Made by a program: the position numbers and the translations under genes. From assembly GCA_020852815.1 (NCBI GenBank), contig JADZAN010000015.1:70840-134839 (forward strand): a stretch of DNA of 64,000 nucleotides, read 5' to 3'. Positions 8,833 through 43,145 of this stretch are shown piece after piece. Every line of letters begins with the position of its first letter. Position 1 is the stretch's first letter. The notes beneath the pieces are model-generated. The model was not told the DNA's origin. It saw only the letters and a program-made list of their open reading frames with translations, and ran no database searches. Origin of the DNA: Gemmatimonadaceae bacterium. Its GTDB lineage: Bacteria > Gemmatimonadota > Gemmatimonadetes > Gemmatimonadales > Gemmatimonadaceae.

Positions 8833-11184
8833 CTAGCGCGCGATCCCGACCTGACGCGCCACCGACTCGAATCGCGGATCGGCGCGTATCTCCGCCGGCC
8901 ACGGCAGGGAGTAGAGACGCACGAGGTCGCTCACCCGATCGTCCACTGCGCGCGTGAGCCAGCGAAAGGCCTCCTCGTAGTCACCCACGCCAACGTGACA
9001 AATGGCGCGATCCAGCGGTGACACGTATTGCGTACGGGCACGCGCCTCCAGGCGTTGCAGCGCCTCACGCGCCACTTCGGGGTGCCCGCCGACGCCGGCG
9101 GTTATCCCGAGGTAGCCGAGCCCGGTGGCGCCATCGGTGAGGTCGACCAGTCGCTGGAAGTCGGCGACCGCCTCTTGGTGCCGCCCCTGCCAGATGTGCA
9201 CTGCACCCAGTGGCCAGTAGGTGAGGGCGAAGTTGGGGTCGAGTGCCTGCGTACGGGCCAGCTGTTCGAGCGCCTCGTCGAAGCGCCCGGCCCAGAAGAG
9301 GGCATACCCCATGTGCGCGTTGATGATGAGCGAGAGCGGGTCCAGCTGCAACGCGGTTCGCATTGCCTCGATCATCTCGTCCATCCGGCGCATCACCAGC
9401 AGGCACCACGCATACCACTGGTGTGCGCTGGCGTAGGTGGGGTCGAGCGCGATGGCGCGCGTGAACGACGCCTCGGCCCCCGCCCAGTCCCAGTCGTGGA
9501 ACAGGCGCGTGTACCCTAACGATGCGTGTGCCTGCGCCAGCGACTCGTCGATCTCCAGCGCGCGCATTGCCGCCGCCTTGGCCCTCGGATACGCCTCGCG
9601 CGGCGGGAGGTAGTTGTAGTACCCGAGCACGTTGTACGAATCGCCCAGCCCCGCGTAGGCAAGGGCGTACGCGGGGTCGCGGTCGATTGCCTCCTGGAAG
9701 TGGGCAATCGCCTTGAGGAAGCCATCGCGCGTGCGCTTGTTCCACTGGTACCGCCCGCGCAGGTAGGCGCGATACGCGACCGAATCCTCGGTGTAACGCC
9801 GCACCAGCTCCTGCCGCTCCTCTGCCGACAGCCGCAACCGGAGCGACTTCACGATCTCGCCGGCAATCTCCTCCTGCACGGCAAAGATGTCCTCGGCCGA
9901 GCGCGAGATGCGGTCCCCCCATAGCTGCGACTCGTTGACCGCGTCGGTGAGCTCGGCACTCACGTGCAGTGTTTGCCCGCGCTGGCGCACGCGCCCTGTC
10001 ACCAGCGCGCGAACGCGCAGCTCATTGGCGACAATCGGGATGTCGACGTCGCGCCGCTTGTAGCGAAAGACCACCGATCGCGGGACGACGCGCAGCCCCG
10101 AGACTCGCGTCAGCTTGTTGAGGATGGTCTCGGTGATCCCGTCGGCGAGGTACTCGTCGTCGCTCCCGCTGGCCGGCGAGTCGAACGGGAGCACCGCCAC
10201 CGAATCGATGGGCCCCGACGTCGGCGCGTTCGACGCGGGGTGCGCCACCATGGGAGACGACGTGGCGCTCGGCGTCGAGTGAGCGTCACGCGTGGTCTGC
10301 ACTGCGGGGGGCGACATGGGCAGGTGACGCGTGTCGAGGGAGCGCAGCGCGTTGCGCAGGAGCGCCGCCGAAGCGAAGCGCTCGTCAGGCTCCTTCGCCA
10401 TCGCCGTGCGAATGAGCTGTCGCAGTGCGTCGGGGATGTCGTCTCGCTCGAGCGGCGGCGGCTCCTTCACGAAGTGCGCCAGAATGATCTGCTGCGCCGT
10501 GCTCCCCTCGAACGGCGGACGCCCGGAGAGCATCTGGTACATCACGCACCCAAGAGCGTAGATGTCGGAGCGACCGTCGACCGCGTCCCCGCCTCCCTGC
10601 TCGGGGCTCATGTAGAGCGGCGTCCCCAGCACCAGCCCAGTGGCGGTGAGCGAACTCGCCGTGGGCTCGGCGGCCCTACTCACCGCCCGCGCGATGCCGA
10701 AGTCGGCGACGATCGCGTGTTCGTCTTCGAGGAGGATGTTGGCCGGCTTGATGTCGCGGTGAATCACTCCCTGCCGATGCGCATGGTCGAGCGCGTCGGC
10801 CACTTCCTCCGCCAGATGCACGACTTCGCCCACGGGAAGCGGCGCGGCAAGGGCAATGCGGTGCGCCAGCGACTCTCCGTTGATGAGCGGCATCGTGTAG
10901 TAAAGGATGCCCGACGCCTCGCCCGCGCTCAGCAGCGGGACGATGTGCGGATGGCGGAGCGTGGCCGCCACCTGGATTTCGCGACGAAAGCGCTCGGCGC
11001 TGATCCCGGAGGTGACCTCGGCCGTGACGACCTTGATGACCACCGTGCGGTCGAGCGCGATCTCGCGCGCGGCAAAGACGCGACTCATTCCGGCGCCGCC
11101 GAGTTCGCGTTCGATCTCGTATGTGCCGGCGAGCGCAGCGCTCAGCCGTTCACCAAGGAAGTCGGCGGGATGGGTCATGGACAT
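8833..11184 (-). CDS. Ser/Thr protein kinase (Hanks type) with C-terminal TPR domain
   Basis: Kinase motifs VVIKV, HRDIKPANILL, DFGIA and YMSPEQ, then a Ser/Pro-rich linker and C-terminal TPR repeats. Start is ATG 11184 (MSMTHP) or GTG 11202. Confidence 0.88.
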   Translation of the reverse strand: MSMTHPADFLGERLSAALAGTYEIERELGGAGMSRVFAAREIALDRTVVIKVVTAEVTSGISAERFRREIQVAATLRHPHIVPLLSAGEASGILYYTMPLINGESLAHRIALAAPLPVGEVVHLAEEVADALDHAHRQGVIHRDIKPANILLEDEHAIVADFGIARAVSRAAEPTASSLTATGLVLGTPLYMSPEQGGGDAVDGRSDIYALGCVMYQMLSGRPPFEGSTAQQIILAHFVKEPPPLERDDIPDALRQLIRTAMAKEPDERFASAALLRNALRSLDTRHLPMSPPAVQTTRDAHSTPSATSSPMVAHPASNAPTSGPIDSVAVLPFDSPASGSDDEYLADGITETILNKLTRVSGLRVVPRSVVFRYKRRDVDIPIVANELRVRALVTGRVRQRGQTLHVSAELTDAVNESQLWGDRISRSAEDIFAVQEEIAGEIVKSLRLRLSAEERQELVRRYTEDSVAYRAYLRGRYQWNKRTRDGFLKAIAHFQEAIDRDPAYALAYAGLGDSYNVLGYYNYLPPREAYPRAKAAAMRALEIDESLAQAHASLGYTRLFHDWDWAGAEASFTRAIALDPTYASAHQWYAWCLLVMRRMDEMIEAMRTALQLDPLSLIINAHMGYALFWAGRFDEALEQLARTQALDPNFALTYWPLGAVHIWQGRHQEAVADFQRLVDLTDGATGLGYLGITAGVGGHPEVAREALQRLEARARTQYVSPLDRAICHVGVGDYEEAFRWLTRAVDDRVSDLVRLYSLPWPAEIRADPRFESVARQVGIAR

Positions 11185-11379
11185 CGGAGGGGAACCTACC
11201 ACCGCGCACCGCTTTCGGCGCCCCCACGGTCGCGATCGCCACCGCGCCTAGAAGTTGACAGATGGCGGTTTCGCATTGCCACGTCTTGCGAGGTTGCGGG
11301 CACGGCCGTAGAACGGGTGCTCGCCGCGCTGTGTATCCCGCCGCGGCGGTCGGCGTCCCCCCCCTCCCCGAGGCTTCCC

Positions 11380-12282
11380 ATGGCGCGCGCGACCTCGAGC
11401 CCCCTCCCCCCCCTCCCGCCCACCATCAGCATCCCGACGTTCAAGGTCACGTCGAAGCCCACCGGCACCATCAACATCCCCGCCTCGGTCCCCTTCTACT
11501 ACGCCGGGATCAGCTCGATCTGGGTCTACTGGCAGGTCGAACTCCCGGTCCTGCTCAAGTACCTCAAGCCATTGGGGATGCTCCCAGCACAGTTCGAGGG
11601 GATGGGGGCCGTGGGGATCAACTTCTTCAACGCGGTCGCGCTCTACGGCCAGGGGGAGCCCGGGAATCCCGGCGCCTCGGGCTTCAACGAGACCGAACTC
11701 AACATCCTCGCCTTCGCCGCCAACCAGGCACCTAACGTCCCGGCGATGACGCTGCAGGAGTACCTGGCCAACGGCGACCAGACCAAGCGCATTGGCAACT
11801 ATCGCGTCTGGGTGGCATGCGACAGCGCCGTCGCGGTGGCCGCCGGGCAGCAGCTCTACTTCGAGAACAAGTTCCAGGTCGACTACAAGTACAACGTCCC
11901 CGCGCTCAACAACCCGGGGCAGGGCGCCTATGCCTGGACCTGTTACGACCACGACGACAACTCGAAGAGCATCTACAGCGCGAATGTGTCGCTCACCGGG
12001 CTCACACCAACGTCCGGCAACATGTCGGAGTGGGTCGACCTGAGCTACGTGGGGAGCGCCAAGCGCGTCGCGGGGTCGCGCCGGAACTACTTCGGGATGC
12101 ACGACACGTATCACATCCCCAAGGCGAACCGCAACGCGGTGACGATCTCGCTAGGCCAGAGCCCGCACCCGATGCGTCACGACATGGAGAAGCTCATCGG
12201 CGAACGCAAGGCGGTCGCGGTGCAGGTCTTCAACAGCGCGCCCTGCATCGCCGAGGCGCGCGCATACTGGGCCGACCTCTAG
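11380..12282 (+). CDS. Hypothetical protein (300 aa), first gene of the GMC operon
   Basis: ATG 11380 is in frame inside the long ORF 9964..12282, whose upstream part is antisense to the kinase gene. It ends 15 nt before the next gene. I could assign no motif, signal peptide or CXXCH. A vague resemblance to acetoacetate-decarboxylase-like folds is not supported well enough to call. Confidence 0.6.
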   Translation: MARATSSPLPPLPPTISIPTFKVTSKPTGTINIPASVPFYYAGISSIWVYWQVELPVLLKYLKPLGMLPAQFEGMGAVGINFFNAVALYGQGEPGNPGASGFNETELNILAFAANQAPNVPAMTLQEYLANGDQTKRIGNYRVWVACDSAVAVAAGQQLYFENKFQVDYKYNVPALNNPGQGAYAWTCYDHDDNSKSIYSANVSLTGLTPTSGNMSEWVDLSYVGSAKRVAGSRRNYFGMHDTYHIPKANRNAVTISLGQSPHPMRHDMEKLIGERKAVAVQVFNSAPCIAEARAYWADL

Positions 12283-12297
12283 ACAGGGAGCGCCGAC

Positions 12298-12780
12298 ATG
12301 CCGCGCACGGTGGCTCCACCCGATACGCGCCGACAGTTCGTGGCGCTCTCCGTGATCCTCACCGGCTTTGACGACGCCGAGCTGTGGGGGACGGGGATGG
12401 TCGACACCTACATCGACTGGATTCGCCGCATCATCGGCGACACGCGCCTGGGCGACCTGCTCTCGGTCTCGCAGGCGGCGATGGATGCGTCGAACGGCAA
12501 GCAGGCGACGCTTGATCGACTCATACGACTCAACGTGCTGGACGACGACATGCTCGGCCCGGTGGCGCGCAACCTCATCGTGCTCTGGTACCTGGGGCAG
12601 TGGAACCAGCTTCCGGGGGACTGGCGCGATGCGCATGGCGCGAGCGCGCTCGACGTCACGTGCATGGTGTCGCCAGACGCCTACGCCGAGGGGTTGGTGT
12701 GGAAGGCCATCCACACGCACCCGCAGGGCGCCAAGCAGCCGGGGTTCGGCTCGTGGTCGCTTCCGCCGGTGACGCGATGA
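12298..12780 (+). CDS. Small Tat-signal (hitch-hiker) subunit of an FAD sugar-dehydrogenase-type complex
   Basis: GGGAG (12286-12290) lies 7 nt before the ATG. Twin-arginine motif DTRRQFVALSVIL. The IVLWYLGQW region resembles the small subunits of gluconate 2-DH / sorbitol DH complexes (recalled family signature). Confidence 0.65.
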   Translation: MPRTVAPPDTRRQFVALSVILTGFDDAELWGTGMVDTYIDWIRRIIGDTRLGDLLSVSQAAMDASNGKQATLDRLIRLNVLDDDMLGPVARNLIVLWYLGQWNQLPGDWRDAHGASALDVTCMVSPDAYAEGLVWKAIHTHPQGAKQPGFGSWSLPPVTR

Positions 12781-14582
12781 CGATGCCACAGGGGAGTTAC
12801 GACGCGGTCATCATCGGGGCGGGGCCGGTAGGGCTCAACATCGCCAAGGTGCTCAGCGACCGCGGCAAGCGCGTCCTCCTCCTCGAGGCGGGGCGCGCCT
12901 CCGGGCTGTCGTATGACGGATGGCTGTCCTACGTCGACACCTTTCGCTCGGCGCTCATCAAGGAGCCCAACTCGCCGTATCCGCCTAACGCGAACGCGCC
13001 CAGCACGTACGCGCAGGACGTGTACAACATGCAGAAGCACGTCCCCATTCTCTCCGGTTACCAGGTGGAGAAGGGGCCGCTGGCCTTTGGCTCGACGTAC
13101 CTGCGCTCGCTCGGCGGGACGTCGCTGCACTGGCTGGGGACGTGTCCGCGCATGGTGCCCAACGACTTTCGCATGAAGACGGCGTACGGCGTCGGGGTCG
13201 ACTGGCCGCTGACGTACGACGAGCTGCAACCGTACTACTGTCGCGCCGAGTGGGCGTTAGGCGTGTCGGCGAACAAGGAGGACCAGGAGCACTTCGGGAT
13301 GTGGTTTCCCGAGGACTACGACTATCCGATGGAGCGCATTCCCCAGAGCTATTCGGACCAGTTGTATGCCCGGGGGGCGGCGAGGGCCAAGGTGCAGTGG
13401 GCGGGGCGCGAGTACGGGATGACGGTGACGTCGCTTCCGCAGGCGCGCAACTCCATTCCGCGCGCCGGCTATCGTCCGCGGGGGGCGGTGGGGGCGCCGC
13501 ACGTGGGACAGCGGTGCGAGGGTAACGCCAGCTGCATCCCCATCTGTCCCGTGCAGGCCAAGTACAGCGCGCTCCGCACGCTGGGTGAGCTCGATGCGAA
13601 CTTCTACACGCTGGTGACGCAGGCCGTGGCCACGCGCCTCCTCATCGACGAGAGCGGGCGCATTGGCGGTGTGGAGTTCAAGCGCTACGCCAGCGAGTCG
13701 TCCAACCAGTCGCAGACGTACACCGCATACGGGACGTTGTACGTGGTGGCCGCGCACGCGGTGGAGGGCGCCAAGCTCCTGCTTGCGTCGGGGGCTGCCA
13801 ACTCGAGCGACCAGGTGGGGCGCAACCTGATGGACCATCCGTTCTTCCTCACGTGGGCGCTCAATCCCACGCCGGTGGGAGCGTTCCGCGGCCCCGGGCA
13901 GACGTCGGAGATCCCGTCGTTTCGCGACGGCCCGTTCCGCAACGAGTTCGCCGCCTTCCGCATCGACCTGGGGAACTGGGGGTGGGACGTTGCCACCTTT
14001 CCCCCCGGGAGCAACGTGAACGACGCAGTGGGGAAGAACGTCTTCGGCAAGGCGCTGCGACAGTCGCTGGAGCACCAGATCACCCGCCAGCTGCGCGTGG
14101 GCTACGTGGTGGAGCAGCTGCCGGAGGCGGGCAATCGCGTCACGATCGATCGCGAGTTCCTGGATCCGCTGGGGTGCTATCGCCCGGTGATTCACTACAA
14201 CGTGTCGGACTACACGCGCGAGGCGATGGTGCGGGCCAACGAGGTATCGAATGCGCTCTTCCGTGCCATGGGGATCGCCCCGCACGACATCAGGACGTCG
14301 CACACGCCGGACAACACCCCGGGGTACATGACCTACAAGGGGCGCGACGGCAAGGAGTACTCGTTAGGGTTCTACGGTTCGGGGCACCACATGGGGACGC
14401 ATCGCATGGGGGTGAGCCGCACCGACTCGGTGACCGACGCCAATTGCCGCAGTTGGGACCACGAGAACCTGTACGTGGTGGGATGCGGGAGCATGCCGAC
14501 CGTTGGCGCCTCCAACCCCACCATCACCGCCGTGGCCATCGCGCTCAAGGCGGCTGACCACATGCTCACCCAGCTCGGTTGA
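12777..14582 (+). CDS. GMC-family FAD oxidoreductase, catalytic subunit, Fe-S-type Cys motif
   Basis: ATG 12777 overlaps the upstream stop (ATGA). FAD fold YDAVIIGAGPVG..VLLLEAG. Cys-rich CEGNASCIPICPVQAKY. C-terminal GMC signatures GSGHHMGTHRMG and NLYVVGCGSMPT. Confidence 0.88.
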   Translation: MTMPQGSYDAVIIGAGPVGLNIAKVLSDRGKRVLLLEAGRASGLSYDGWLSYVDTFRSALIKEPNSPYPPNANAPSTYAQDVYNMQKHVPILSGYQVEKGPLAFGSTYLRSLGGTSLHWLGTCPRMVPNDFRMKTAYGVGVDWPLTYDELQPYYCRAEWALGVSANKEDQEHFGMWFPEDYDYPMERIPQSYSDQLYARGAARAKVQWAGREYGMTVTSLPQARNSIPRAGYRPRGAVGAPHVGQRCEGNASCIPICPVQAKYSALRTLGELDANFYTLVTQAVATRLLIDESGRIGGVEFKRYASESSNQSQTYTAYGTLYVVAAHAVEGAKLLLASGAANSSDQVGRNLMDHPFFLTWALNPTPVGAFRGPGQTSEIPSFRDGPFRNEFAAFRIDLGNWGWDVATFPPGSNVNDAVGKNVFGKALRQSLEHQITRQLRVGYVVEQLPEAGNRVTIDREFLDPLGCYRPVIHYNVSDYTREAMVRANEVSNALFRAMGIAPHDIRTSHTPDNTPGYMTYKGRDGKEYSLGFYGSGHHMGTHRMGVSRTDSVTDANCRSWDHENLYVVGCGSMPTVGASNPTITAVAIALKAADHMLTQLG

Positions 14583-14590
14583 GGCGGGCG

Positions 14591-15604
14591 ATGCCAATCA
14601 CCGATTACGACAGCCTGGTCGACCACCTGAAGACCGCGATCGCGATCGAGCACGCCACGATCGCGCCGTATCTCTGTGCGCTCTATTCCATCCCCGAAGG
14701 GACCAACCACGAGGCGCAGGCCATCGTGCGCAGCGTGGTGATGGAGGAGATGCTGCACATGACGCTGGCGGCCAACGTCCTCGTTGCCGTGGGCGGCAAG
14801 CCCGTGATCGCGTCCGCCGCCGCCGTCCCGCGGTACCCAGCCTACCTTCCGCACTCGAACAAGCGCTTTCAGGTGCAACTTCTCCCGCTCGGGCGCGAGG
14901 CATTGCAGACCTTCCTCCTCATCGAGAGCCCGGCCCCCGCCTCGGCGCCGCCGGAGGGAGACCACTACAACACCCTCGGGCAGTTCTACGCCGCCGTCGA
15001 GGATGGGCTCAGGTTCTGCGCGAAGAAGTACGGCGAGCGGAAGCTCTTCTCCGGGAAGCGCGCGATGCAGGTGCCGCCGGAACGCTGGTACTACGGCGGC
15101 GGGGGCGACTGCATCGAGGTGCACAATCTCGAGACCGCGCTGCGTGCCCTGGACGAGATCACCGAGCAGGGCGAGGGTTACGACGGCGGGATCACCGACG
15201 GCGACGGCGCCTTCAACGACGTCGACGAGCTGGCGCACTTCCATCGCTTCAACGAGCTGCTGCAGGGGCGCCGCTACGTGGCCACCGACTCCGACGCCAG
15301 CGGCCCCACCGGCGATGAACTCCCCGTCGACTGGAGCGTGATTGCCCCCATGGCCCCCAACCCGCGCACATCGCAGTACCGGCGCCATCGCACCATCCAC
15401 CAGGCCATGGTGACGTTCAACCGCACGTACACGCGACTCCTCCAGCAGCTGCAACTCGCCTTCACGGGACGACCGGCGGCGCTGCAGGAGGCGGTGCCGA
15501 TCATGTACGAGATGCGCTACCAGGCGCAGGCGCTGATGCGCATCCCCTCGCCCATCGTCGAGGGGAAGACCGTCGGCCCTGCCTTCGAATACGATGCGTC
15601 GTAG
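14591..15604 (+). CDS. Ferritin-like domain protein (PF12902-like four-helix bundle)
   Basis: ATG 14591 lies 8 nt after the GMC stop and is preceded by GAGG. Helices LKTAIAIEHATIAPYLCALYS and VVMEEMLHMTLAANVLVAVGGKP match the ferritin-like family seen at the N-terminus of VioB (recalled signature). Confidence 0.7.
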   Translation: MPITDYDSLVDHLKTAIAIEHATIAPYLCALYSIPEGTNHEAQAIVRSVVMEEMLHMTLAANVLVAVGGKPVIASAAAVPRYPAYLPHSNKRFQVQLLPLGREALQTFLLIESPAPASAPPEGDHYNTLGQFYAAVEDGLRFCAKKYGERKLFSGKRAMQVPPERWYYGGGGDCIEVHNLETALRALDEITEQGEGYDGGITDGDGAFNDVDELAHFHRFNELLQGRRYVATDSDASGPTGDELPVDWSVIAPMAPNPRTSQYRRHRTIHQAMVTFNRTYTRLLQQLQLAFTGRPAALQEAVPIMYEMRYQAQALMRIPSPIVEGKTVGPAFEYDAS

Positions 15605-15628: not shown

Positions 15629-15964
15629 TCAGGGCGCCTGCAGGTGCACGAAGCCGGCAATGCGCTCCAGGGAGACGAAGGAAACGTTGTGCGTCCCCTC
15701 GAAGCACTGCGACCAACCCTTCACCACCGCCTGCCACTCCTTGCTGGCCAGGTGACGCTGCAAGGCGGCATTGTCGAGATACGACTCGTAGAACATCAGC
15801 TTGCGCGTGGGGCGCCCAGTCTTTCGGCTGAGGACGCGATGCACGAGGTAGAATACCACGCCAGGCTGTTCGCGCTCCGCCTGCGCGCGAACCGCCGCCA
15901 GCCGCGCCAGGGCCAGTTCTTCCTTGCCGGCCTTCATGGTGAAGTGCGCGATGGATGTGATCAT
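15629..15964 (-). CDS. Antibiotic-biosynthesis-monooxygenase (ABM)-like small protein
   Basis: 111 aa from ATG 15964 (MITSIAHFTMKAGKEE..FYLVHRV..FYESYLDNAALQRH). Size and pattern are typical of an ABM dimeric alpha-beta barrel. Confidence 0.65.
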   Translation of the reverse strand: MITSIAHFTMKAGKEELALARLAAVRAQAEREQPGVVFYLVHRVLSRKTGRPTRKLMFYESYLDNAALQRHLASKEWQAVVKGWSQCFEGTHNVSFVSLERIAGFVHLQAP

Positions 15965-16082
15965 CGAGGGCGAGTGTAGGGAGAGAGAGGGGGCACGAGC
16001 TGGCGGCGGGCGTCGCACCTGCCGCGACGCCCGATACCCTACAAGCCAGAAGGCGACGCGTCAAACCGCGCCGCCTTCTCAA

Positions 16083-42377: not shown

Positions 42378-43145
42378 CTACTGCGGGCGCTGCCCCTTGA
42401 GCATTGCCTGCGTCCGCTTGAGCTGCGGGTTGTCCGGCGACGCCTGCAGTCCCTTGTCGATTGCCGCCAGCGCGGCCACCGTGTCCCCCTTCTGCGCCAA
42501 CCCGATCGCGAGCTGCGACCAGGTCACCACCGACTTGGGGAAGTACTCGAGGTTCAGGTTGAGGAGCTTGATTGCGTCGTCGACGCGGCGGGCACGCGAC
42601 ATCTCCTCGGCCAGGCGCGGGAGCCCATCTTCCGAGAAGTCAAACTGCGCCTTTCCGTACGTCTTCTCGCGCAGCTCCTTGTAGCGCACGATGGCGCTGT
42701 CCGCGTCCTTCGCTTCCAGCGCGCCCAGCACCTCGGCGGCCAGCGTGCGCGGCCTTGAGGCGCCGCGATGGCACGTCTCGCACCCCACGCGCGTGCGCGC
42801 CGTGAAGGTGCGCCCGGACTGCGACAGGTACTTCTGGTTGATGTCCATCGTCATCTGGAGCATCTGTCGCGTGATCTTCTTCAGCTCCTTGTCGTCCGAG
42901 GCCGCGTCGAGCTGCTCCGGCATCTGTCCGGGGTTCTTCACCACGTGACAGTCATTGCAGCGCAACCCTAACGACGAGGTGAATCGCCGCATGACGTTGA
43001 GCAGCTCGGGGCGCGGAATGTCCTTGGGAAGGACCTGCAGGTTCTTGAACCCTTCCTGCGGTTGCGCCCCGGCAGCCGCCGGTACGGCCACCACCGGAAC
43101 GGCGACGCACAGCACGGCGAACGAACGACGAACGAATCGCAACAT
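42378..43145 (-). CDS. Dihaem c-type cytochrome (reaction-centre-cytochrome-like fold) with C-terminal TPR
   Basis: Signal peptide. Two CXXCH sites (CNDCH, CETCH). FKNLQVLPKDIP..MRRFTSSLGLRCNDCH is typical of PF02276-like cytochromes. The tail is TPR-like. Confidence 0.8.
   Translation of the reverse strand: MLRFVRRSFAVLCVAVPVVAVPAAAGAQPQEGFKNLQVLPKDIPRPELLNVMRRFTSSLGLRCNDCHVVKNPGQMPEQLDAASDDKELKKITRQMLQMTMDINQKYLSQSGRTFTARTRVGCETCHRGASRPRTLAAEVLGALEAKDADSAIVRYKELREKTYGKAQFDFSEDGLPRLAEEMSRARRVDDAIKLLNLNLEYFPKSVVTWSQLAIGLAQKGDTVAALAAIDKGLQASPDNPQLKRTQAMLKGQRPQ

Follow-up and report, generated by a model that had tools for sequence, protein, structure and literature searches.

A predicted cytoplasmic flavo-iron-sulfur dehydrogenase module with a ferritin-like protein in the operon position of the cytochrome c subunit

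Introduction

The complexes of flavin adenine dinucleotide (FAD)-dependent glucose dehydrogenase (FAD-GDH) and of fructose dehydrogenase (FDH) have been heavily studied as direct-electron-transfer biosensor enzymes and, to our knowledge, have been described only as periplasmic, with a small twin-arginine translocation (Tat) subunit and a cytochrome c. In the present study, a related operon was analysed in a stretch of 64,000 nucleotides from a Gemmatimonadaceae bacterium (assembly GCA_020852815.1, contig JADZAN010000015.1, positions 70,840 to 134,839), referred to below as the window. Its four open reading frames (ORFs) encode a predicted GMC flavoprotein (ORF3), a putative distant small-subunit homologue (ORF2) and a ferritin-like protein (ORF4), together referred to as the triad, and a protein of accessory character (ORF1).

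In the Burkholderia cepacia FAD-GDH (BcGDH), a Cys motif of the catalytic subunit binds a surface 3Fe-4S cluster, by which the electrons of FAD are passed to the cytochrome c subunit (PMC6719666). Canonical operons annotated in Pantoea and Gluconobacter have the order 'sugar dehydrogenase complex small subunit', GMC protein and 'cytochrome c'; in the operon analysed here the third position, that of the cytochrome c in the canonical enzymes, is held by the ferritin-like gene. It is proposed, with what we consider an even chance of being right, that the product of the locus is a flavo-iron-sulfur dehydrogenase of three subunits, located in the cytoplasm, whose ferritin-like subunit accepts the electrons and reacts with O2.

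Results and Discussion

Operon structure and conservation of the triad

The four genes are co-directional and were assigned to one operon from the ORF list of the window and the reading of the junctions. They are the following:

ORF1, 11380-12282, forward strand, 300 aa: acetoacetate-decarboxylase-like (beta-cone) protein, as judged from a structural model.
ORF2, 12298-12780, forward strand, 160 aa: predicted remote homologue of the PF12318-type small subunit, without signal.
ORF3, 12777-14582, forward strand, 601 aa: predicted GMC FAD catalytic subunit with the 3Fe-4S Cys motif C247, C253, C257.
ORF4, 14591-15604, forward strand, 337 aa: PF12902 ferritin-like protein, the proposed third subunit and electron acceptor.

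The tight packing described in the initial annotation was confirmed from the sequence. ORF1 and ORF2 are joined by TAG, 15 nt (with GGGAG inside) and ATG, ORF2 and ORF3 by an ATGA overlap at 12777-12780, and ORF3 and ORF4 by TGA, 8 nt and ATG. A promoter/terminator consensus scan yielded no sites and was uninformative in a genome of 67% GC.

The ORF2 family was scanned in one genome per GTDB species, and the resulting 80 loci were examined with hidden Markov models (HMMs) of five window proteins. The loci span Gemmatimonadota, Acidobacteriota, Actinomycetota, Bacteroidota, Pseudomonadota, Verrucomicrobiota and Planctomycetota, and include the cultured genera Chitinophaga, Flavobacterium, Chromobacterium and Undibacterium. 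The small subunit and the GMC protein were present in all 80 loci (80/80 each), the ferritin-like protein in 75/80, ORF1 in 36/80 and a protein with an ABM domain, described below, in 26/80. In the 5 loci without a ferritin-like gene, the contig edge lies within or just after the GMC gene, and the order small subunit, GMC, ferritin-like, as in the window, was observed in 75/75 loci reaching far enough. The triad core is conserved across at least eight bacterial phyla, and its arrangement, given its recurrence in 75 of 80 loci, is far beyond chance. Of the 33 loci scored for the junction between ORF2 and the GMC gene, 24 had a 4-nt overlap or shorter; the spacing from the GMC to the ferritin-like gene is a rough estimate across phyla, as starts are uncertain outside Gemmatimonadota. 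The four-gene form, together with the convergent ABM gene, was found in three divergent Gemmatimonadota contigs, so that the four genes are co-conserved in relatives, as the neighbourhood check proposed at first had asked.

The ferritin-like gene was additionally found on 172 plasmid records, many of them rhizobial and including Rhizobium etli CFN42 p42f, and it adjoins the GMC gene in 9 of 10 records that were cross-checked. The order on plasmids is permuted to GMC, ferritin-like, small subunit (rhizobial, Pseudoalteromonas and Gloeothece plasmids), where the 'hypothetical protein' that follows the ferritin-like gene matches the ORF2 HMM with E values from 1e-46 to 1e-56.

Two variants of the arrangement were observed. 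On the plasmid of Streptomyces sp. NBC_01562 (L089), the small subunit and GMC genes stand beside non-ribosomal peptide synthetase (NRPS) and TauD-type dioxygenase genes, followed by an integrase gene; the ferritin-like gene is not at the cluster, and the only homologue on the plasmid lies 94 kb off, this being the sole broken triad seen. In a Rhizobium metagenome-assembled genome (MAG; L048) and an Agrobacterium larrymoorei plasmid (L090), the order is small subunit, GMC, GMC, ferritin-like, small subunit, a hint that two dehydrogenases may share a single ferritin-like subunit.

The cytochrome c position and protein fusions

No CXXCH site is present in any of the four operon proteins, and the motif scan here bears out the initial annotation. 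Across 87 loci a conserved cytochrome c partner was not found, since an ORF with two or more CXXCH sites occurred in only 10 of them, with no single recurring family; the possibility that a cytochrome c is after all the conserved partner found no backing at these loci. The sole CXXCH-bearing ORF in the window (42378-43145, reverse strand, 255 aa, two sites) is 27 kb away.

Two metagenomic proteins, P0367 (534 aa) and P0410 (543 aa), are in-frame fusions of a complete PF12902 protein, a linker of 25-40 residues and a complete ORF2-type small subunit, and P0410 is encoded directly 3' of a GMC gene on a 64-kb contig. P0472 and P0476, which are truncated or apparently frameshifted, were set aside as fusion evidence. 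Solved structures show homologous small subunits bound to the catalytic subunit (PMC6719666), and the fusion to such a subunit therefore argues that the ferritin-like protein is part of the same physical complex. Synteny and fusions agree with the early proposal of a variant FAD-dependent dehydrogenase module that has a ferritin-like partner and lacks the cytochrome c.

The ferritin-like protein could instead be a separate oxygenase or metalloenzyme that acts on the GMC product and receives no GMC electrons, the 3Fe-4S cluster feeding a generic cytoplasmic acceptor. A parallel exists in VioB and RebD, which act after the flavoproteins VioA and RebO, and PF12902 is related to the VioB family (TIGR04492, a weak match). 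Strict co-occurrence would be expected of a metabolic pair no less than of a physical complex, and accessories of the ADC-like (acetoacetate-decarboxylase-like), ABM, BBE, Dabb and IolE-like types show that the clusters belong to multi-step pathways. Against this stand the exact cytochrome c slot of the ferritin-like gene, the lack of any other conserved candidate acceptor across the 80 loci and the fusion with the small subunit, which argues for a complex with the dehydrogenase. On balance a separate enzyme is considered unlikely, but a serious alternative.

The catalytic subunit

ORF3 matched GMC_oxred_N (2.5e-12) and GMC_oxred_C (1.4e-23) in Pfam, and was aligned over its full length with the BcGDH alpha subunit (6a2u_B, 1e-66) and with the large subunit of the Gluconobacter FDH (7w2j_A, 2e-59), in agreement with its first description as a GMC FAD enzyme with an Fe-S-type Cys motif. 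The motif RCEGNASCIPICP (R-C247-EGNAS-C253-IPI-C257-P, with the spacing C247-x5-C253-x3-C257) is in register with the 3Fe-4S motif CCGNNNCMPICP of BcGDH, and the catalytic His was likewise aligned with those of FAD-GDH and FDH in the PDB sequence search. C247, C253, C257 and H537 are kept in at least 93% of 84 family sequences, and the three Cys of the 3Fe-4S motif are kept in the plasmid copies too. ORF3 is predicted to be a GMC flavoprotein of the FAD-glucose/fructose dehydrogenase type, with a 3Fe-4S cluster as indicated by the Cys residues.

The triad-type GMC proteins on plasmids (R. etli CFN42 p42f, Sinorhizobium, Agrobacterium, Pseudoalteromonas, Gloeothece and Streptomyces) showed identities of 39-49%, versus at most 34% for the canonical enzymes of Pantoea, Gluconobacter and Ketogulonicigenium. 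The clade GMC HMM scored 550-650 bits with the triad type and 270-306 bits with the canonical type.

The ferritin-like protein

ORF4 matched PF12902 with 202.9 bits (cut-off 22.3; 8e-60) over profile positions 1-220 of 221, and a protein 100% identical to it is on record from a Gemmatimonadaceae MAG. The one relative with a solved structure is the orphan 3hl1 (CC_0557, Caulobacter; 9e-9 by sequence). The AlphaFold 2 (AF2) model (pLDDT 91, pTM 0.90) predicts a helical bundle, for which Foldseek found 3hl1 as the sole strong match and DPSL, bacterioferritin, Dps and nigerythrin as weak ones. ORF4 has an extra conserved C-terminal helical domain. The ferritin-like partner seen in the operon at the outset is conserved across phyla, and its assignment is to the ferritin-like family PF12902, not to one unrelated to redox chemistry. 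Against the VioB equivalog TIGR04492, ORF4 scored 22 bits, far below the cut-off of 1250, and it is not a member of that family.

Residue conservation was determined in 87 unique sequences from more than eight phyla, in which most exceptions were gaps. E20, E52, E53 and M54 are conserved in 87/87 ferritin-like sequences, H56 and E112 in 86/87, E195 and H216 in 85/87, and E213 in 82/87; E20, E53, H56, E112, E195 and H216 are common to ORF4 and 3hl1. By their pattern, E20 and E53-x-x-H56 are predicted to make up the first half-site, of classical type, of a di-iron carboxylate centre, at which metal would be bound.

Residues 52-57 of ORF4 include the invariant E52-E53-M54-L55-H56, spaced as in the E-M-x-H of bacterioferritin, whose Glu and His are ligands of the ferroxidase iron and whose Met is the ligand of the inter-subunit haem. 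The ferritin-like subunit might then bind an inter-subunit haem b via Met54 and substitute for the cytochrome as a b-type one, with or without di-iron; the E53-M54-L55-H56 spacing, the invariance of M54 and the fact that VioB-type relatives are haem proteins speak for it. Bacterioferritin 9viw_A aligns on the motif, but the sequence match is not significant (E 0.72), and the Foldseek similarity to bacterioferritin is weak (template modelling (TM) score ~0.3, query-normalised), so that a haem b subunit is held to be improbable.

The weak structural neighbours (DPSL, Dps, bacterioferritin and nigerythrin) could also be taken to indicate a Dps- or rubrerythrin-like protector, which would remove the H2O2 of an oxidase-type GMC enzyme or sequester iron. 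Its 337 aa and the extra C-terminal domain are, however, unlike those of cage-forming ferritins, one-to-one synteny and fusion to the small subunit would be unexpected for a general stress protein, and the 3Fe-4S GMC clade consists of dehydrogenases that pass electrons to a protein partner (PMC6719666). Such a protective role is regarded as quite improbable.

The small subunit and the location of the module

As a single sequence ORF2 had no match in Pfam, NCBIfam or PDB, and a shallow ORF2 alignment gave nothing useful against PDB; only a more diverse alignment reached the FDH small subunit. PF12318 (FAD-SLDH small subunit; 'sugar dehydrogenase complex small subunit') matched 20 of 31 diverse ORF2 relatives, with a best E value of 1.2e-4 and below the gathering score. 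Against PDB, the profile of the 31-relative alignment matched best with 7w2j_B, the FDH small subunit (E 0.0068); positions 4-107 of the ORF2 family profile were aligned with residues 47-141 of this chain. The hhalign comparison of the ORF2 family with annotated small subunits of Pantoea and Gluconobacter was weak (probability 1-18%), yet it still placed the F-x-x-[LI]S-x-x-LTG and LWY-x-G motifs in register. ORF2 is best described as a putative remote homologue of the PF12318 small subunit, and the small-subunit-like core ascribed to it at first is in line with the PF12318 and 7w2j_B matches.

The initial annotation further took ORF2 for a Tat hitch-hiker subunit of a periplasmic module. The letters T-R-R-Q-F-V are indeed present in ORF2 of the window, but not as a functional Tat signal: in the family alignment the RR is limited to close relatives and is replaced elsewhere by LEQF, RAQF, LDQF or LELF, and the hydrophobic FVALSVILTGF that follows belongs to the mature domain as its first conserved helix. 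Only 5-15 residues precede this helix in Bacteroidota, Proteobacteria, Planctomycetota and other phyla. The small-subunit search among 1.84 billion representatives yielded 877 clusters at 50% identity (E <= 1e-3), and most of the 150 representatives listed have a domain that begins at residue 3-10. Neither a separate h-region nor an AxA cleavage site was found in ORF2. The 7w2j_B match begins at residue 47, and hence ORF2 lacks a counterpart of the N-terminal portion of that chain, in which a Tat signal would be expected. A Tat signal on ORF2 was ruled out from the non-conserved RR and the short N-terminus in the family alignments.

In genomes with tight ORF limits, the FAD-binding GxGxxG starts ~8 residues from the GMC N-terminus, and for this reason the GMC protein is taken to lack a signal peptide. 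No signal peptide was found in ORF1, ORF2, ORF3 or ORF4, nor in other members of the family, and the module is therefore predicted to be cytoplasmic and not periplasmic. Export of the module to the periplasm by hitch-hiking on a Tat signal of ORF2, for which the T-R-R-Q-F-V of the window would speak, is very improbable in view of the four features set out above (the RR confined to close relatives, the 5-15 residues before the helix, the start of the 7w2j_B match and the missing AxA).

Other domain arrangements of the small subunit were also seen. In P0421 and P0501 a Lipocalin_5 domain (PF13924) is fused N-terminally to the small-subunit domain. P0380, P0387 and P0461 (408-491 aa) carry 2-3 partial repeats of the N-terminal half of the small subunit followed by a complete copy; they had been considered as fusions of ORF1 and ORF2, which was ruled out by these repeated partial domains.

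Proposed mechanism

In the mechanism proposed for the three-subunit dehydrogenase, the substrate, a sugar, glycoside or cyclitol, would be oxidised by FAD at one of its alcohol groups. The two electrons would leave singly via the 3Fe-4S cluster at the surface and be taken up in the ferritin-like subunit by a di-metal centre, probably a di-iron one. This centre would react with O2, reducing it to water as a terminal acceptor comparable to alternative oxidase; alternatively, O2 might be used there for oxygenation or cleavage of the keto product. Two electrons per substrate oxidation is also what a di-iron centre needs for the activation of O2. More tentatively, and somewhat short of an even chance, the ferritin-fold di-iron (or haem/di-iron) subunit may represent an unrecognised type of terminal acceptor, which, as part of a soluble cytoplasmic machine, would couple the oxidation of a sugar or glycoside directly to O2 reduction or to oxygenation of its own product without quinone, cytochrome or NAD(P). 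Such a machine would be widespread and would reach from Gemmatimonadota of the soil to plasmids in Rhizobium, Sinorhizobium and further genera.

Several points weigh against an electron-accepting ferritin-like subunit. Metal binding by ORF4, electron transfer between the proteins and the use of O2 are all inferred. Among the Foldseek matches of the ORF4 model there is no close relative of characterised function. The second half of the presumed site (E112, E195, E213/H216) departs from the textbook E...ExxH spacing, and E213 is absent from 3hl1, the only solved relative. The PF12902-related VioB is a haem enzyme of follow-up chemistry rather than of electron acceptance. Both clean fusions, P0367 and P0410, are metagenomic singletons, and the neighbour genes vary by lineage (ADC-like and ABM; nitrobindin-like, Dabb and BBE; GH15, IolE and thiamine pyrophosphate (TPP)-dependent enzymes).

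ORF1

The 300-aa protein was initially placed where the cytochrome c subunit is expected, and was said to have no recognisable motif. The latter holds for sequence searches: ORF1 had no significant match in Pfam, NCBIfam or PDB, and the ORF1 profile likewise matched nothing in PDB. It does not hold for the fold. With the AF2 model (pLDDT 88, pTM 0.88), the top 24 PDB matches in Foldseek all belong to the ADC-like superfamily (E 1e-11 to 2e-9, TM 0.5-0.66, probability 1.00), among them Swit_4259 (5upb), MppR (4jme), the aldolase-dehydratase Sbi00515 (6eej) and acetoacetate decarboxylase (ADC; 3bh2). Weak Pfam matches in the ORF1 family were to ADC in 8 of 56 members (best 0.011, below threshold) and to DUF2071 in 6 of 56.

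Where present, the ORF1 gene is always directly upstream of the small subunit, and it occurs in Gemmatimonadota, Acidimicrobiales, some Verrucomicrobiota, Gammaproteobacteria and Bacteroidota. ORF1 is taken to be a lineage-specific accessory, and the model indicates the ADC-like (beta-cone) fold. A redox protein or cytochrome substitute was ruled out by this fold and by the presence in 36/80 loci; the fold is that of non-redox Schiff-base lyases, so the place of the cytochrome initially given to ORF1 is not retained, and ORF1 falls outside the redox families.

K136, K164, E104, E106, E162 and R142 are invariant in the ORF1 family. ADC-like enzymes act on keto acids or carbonyl compounds by way of a Schiff base with a lysine, and on this analogy the simplest role for ORF1 is likely the processing of the keto product of the dehydrogenase, with Schiff-base chemistry via K164 or K136. 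The context of K164, G-x-x-x-x-x-E-N-K, resembles the ADC pattern G-R-E-x-W-G-x-P-K. ORF1 is like the ADC superfamily in its beta-cone fold and in the weak ADC and DUF2071 matches, and differs from ADC, MppR, Sbi00515 and Swit_4259 in an identity of only 9-14%, in an N-terminal extension of ~35 residues and in passing no Pfam threshold.

Neighbouring genes and substrate context

The operon is followed in the window by a convergent gene:

ABM-domain gene, 15629-15964, reverse strand, ~111 aa from an internal ATG: PF03992 ABM (6.5e-9), a recurrent accessory.

Its longest ORF is 15629-16018 (reverse strand, GTG start, 129 aa); since the ABM domain and the homologues (111-119 aa) start at an internal ATG (MITSIAHFTMK...), 15629-15964 is the likely gene. 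Its stop is only 24 nt from that of ORF4. The ABM gene is convergent in Gemmatimonadota, and co-directional after the ferritin-like gene in several Bacteroidota. In the lineage of the window, ORF1 and the ABM-fold protein probably act on the carbonyl product.

Divergent from ORF1 is a gene for a Ser/Thr protein kinase of 789 aa with C-terminal TPR repeats (window 8833-11202, reverse strand), homologues of which stand beside the cluster in 13 loci, nearly all of Gemmatimonadota (the window and two duplicate loci counted). In other phyla an adenylate-cyclase and AAA_16 regulator is found beside the cluster in seven loci (L029, L030, L032-L034, L038 and L043), of which six contain ORF1, the exception being L029. 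The kinase-TPR and cyclase/AAA_16 neighbours suggest that ORF1-type clusters are under dedicated signal-transduction control. Upstream of ORF1, eight loci (L013, L017, L021, L024, L028, L035, L077 and L078) share a recurrent gene group with a CoxG-domain protein, a 2Fe-2S protein (Fer2 and Fer2_2; Pfam) and large ORFs of ~800 aa, which by gene content resembles a CoxSML-type molybdoenzyme cluster and is probably an unrelated neighbour.

In Bacteroidota, Planctomycetota, Acidobacteriota and some Proteobacteria, the clusters contain some or all of ABM, a 312-aa protein, Dabb and a BBE-type FAD oxidase. The ~312-aa protein, which is often encoded after the triad outside Gemmatimonadota, has a weak match to PF08768 (THAP4/nitrobindin haem-binding beta-barrel) and an invariant C-terminal W-P-H motif, and usually occurs with the Dabb protein and the BBE-type FAD oxidase (L031, L052-L057, L059-L062, L065, L069, L075, L076, L080-L085; L090:15498-16403). 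The copy in A. larrymoorei bears the RefSeq name 'heme-binding protein'. That this neighbour might be a displaced ORF1 homologue was ruled out by hhalign (probability 0.2%); it is weakly nitrobindin/THAP4-like.

GH15, IolE-like, TIM-barrel, metallo-beta-lactamase (MBL)-fold and TPP-dependent enzymes accompany the triad on rhizobial, Pseudoalteromonas and cyanobacterial plasmids. The permuted cluster consists of GH15 hydrolase, GMC, ferritin-like, small subunit, IolE-like and sugar-phosphate isomerase/epimerase TIM-barrel genes, after which genes for an MBL-fold hydrolase and a TPP-dependent enzyme usually come; it was seen in Sinorhizobium meliloti (L087), A. larrymoorei (L090), R. etli 8C-3 (L091), Pseudoalteromonas xiamenensis (L092) and R. 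etli CFN42 p42f (L095). In R. etli CFN42 the genes of the triad are RHE_RS28735-28745. In Gloeothece PCC 7822 (L088), only the core of GMC, ferritin-like and small subunit is present, with different neighbours. The permuted plasmid cluster looks like a catabolic pathway for a sugar or cyclitol, in strains that are genetically tractable. At the locus of the P0410 fusion, the neighbours are a TIM-barrel enzyme, GDE and GH63-like hydrolases and a sugar transporter of the major facilitator superfamily (MFS). A sugar or glycoside is the probable substrate; taken together, the gene contexts and the GMC clade indicate sugars, alpha-glucosides or cyclitols, with none singled out.

Comparison with known systems

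Full-text literature searches (PF12902; ferritin-like with GMC, 3Fe-4S or GH15; VioB with ferritin-like) found no description of the module in the papers covered; the one paper that matched several terms, on the CauloKO transposon library, had no bearing on it. Its proteins are named in databases only as 'ferritin-like protein', 'GMC family oxidoreductase' or 'hypothetical protein'. A large sister clade (877 clusters, at least eight phyla, 172 plasmids) keeps the FAD/3Fe-4S unit, always with a ferritin-like partner. If the ferritin-like protein is the acceptor, a new type of redox partner would be defined, a first function would be given to a subfamily of PF12902, the orphan structure 3hl1 included, and the 'membrane respiratory' dehydrogenase design would be seen to be adapted to cytoplasmic O2-dependent catabolism. 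Cultured Rhizobium, Chitinophaga and Chromobacterium strains would allow a direct test of the hypothesis.

Judging from sequence comparison, the module appears to be a sister group of the periplasmic complexes of FAD-glucose, fructose, sorbitol and gluconate dehydrogenase. It shares with the FAD-GDH, FDH and sorbitol dehydrogenase (SLDH) complexes the GMC subunit with its 3Fe-4S Cys motif and catalytic His, a putative, remotely related small subunit, and the gene order small subunit, GMC, third subunit. It differs from them in a small subunit without Tat signal and a predicted cytoplasmic location, in the PF12902 ferritin-like protein in place of the multihaem cytochrome c, and in a GMC protein of a separate clade (39-49% identity within it, versus at most 34%).

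With the PF12902 family and 3hl1, ORF4 shares a strong sequence and fold match and the Glu/His residues. Unlike the related domain of VioB, RebD and StaD, ORF4 is a single-domain protein of 337 aa always paired with a GMC enzyme, and its VioB match is marginal. The predicted four-helix-bundle ferritin-like fold and the conserved E / ExxH half-site resemble those of di-iron carboxylate proteins, and an iron-sulfur protein as the proposed electron donor is a further parallel. Alternative oxidase, aldehyde-deformylating oxygenase and soluble di-iron monooxygenases, which use electrons from a partner together with O2, provide the analogy, as does the bacterioferritin-Bfd pair. ORF4 differs from these in having no detectable sequence homology to them and a non-canonical second half-site and, in contrast to di-iron proteins fed by ferredoxin or quinol, its donor would be the 3Fe-4S cluster of the flavoprotein itself. 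The catalytic core thus belongs to a known family, and what is new is the location, the small subunit without an export role and the third subunit.

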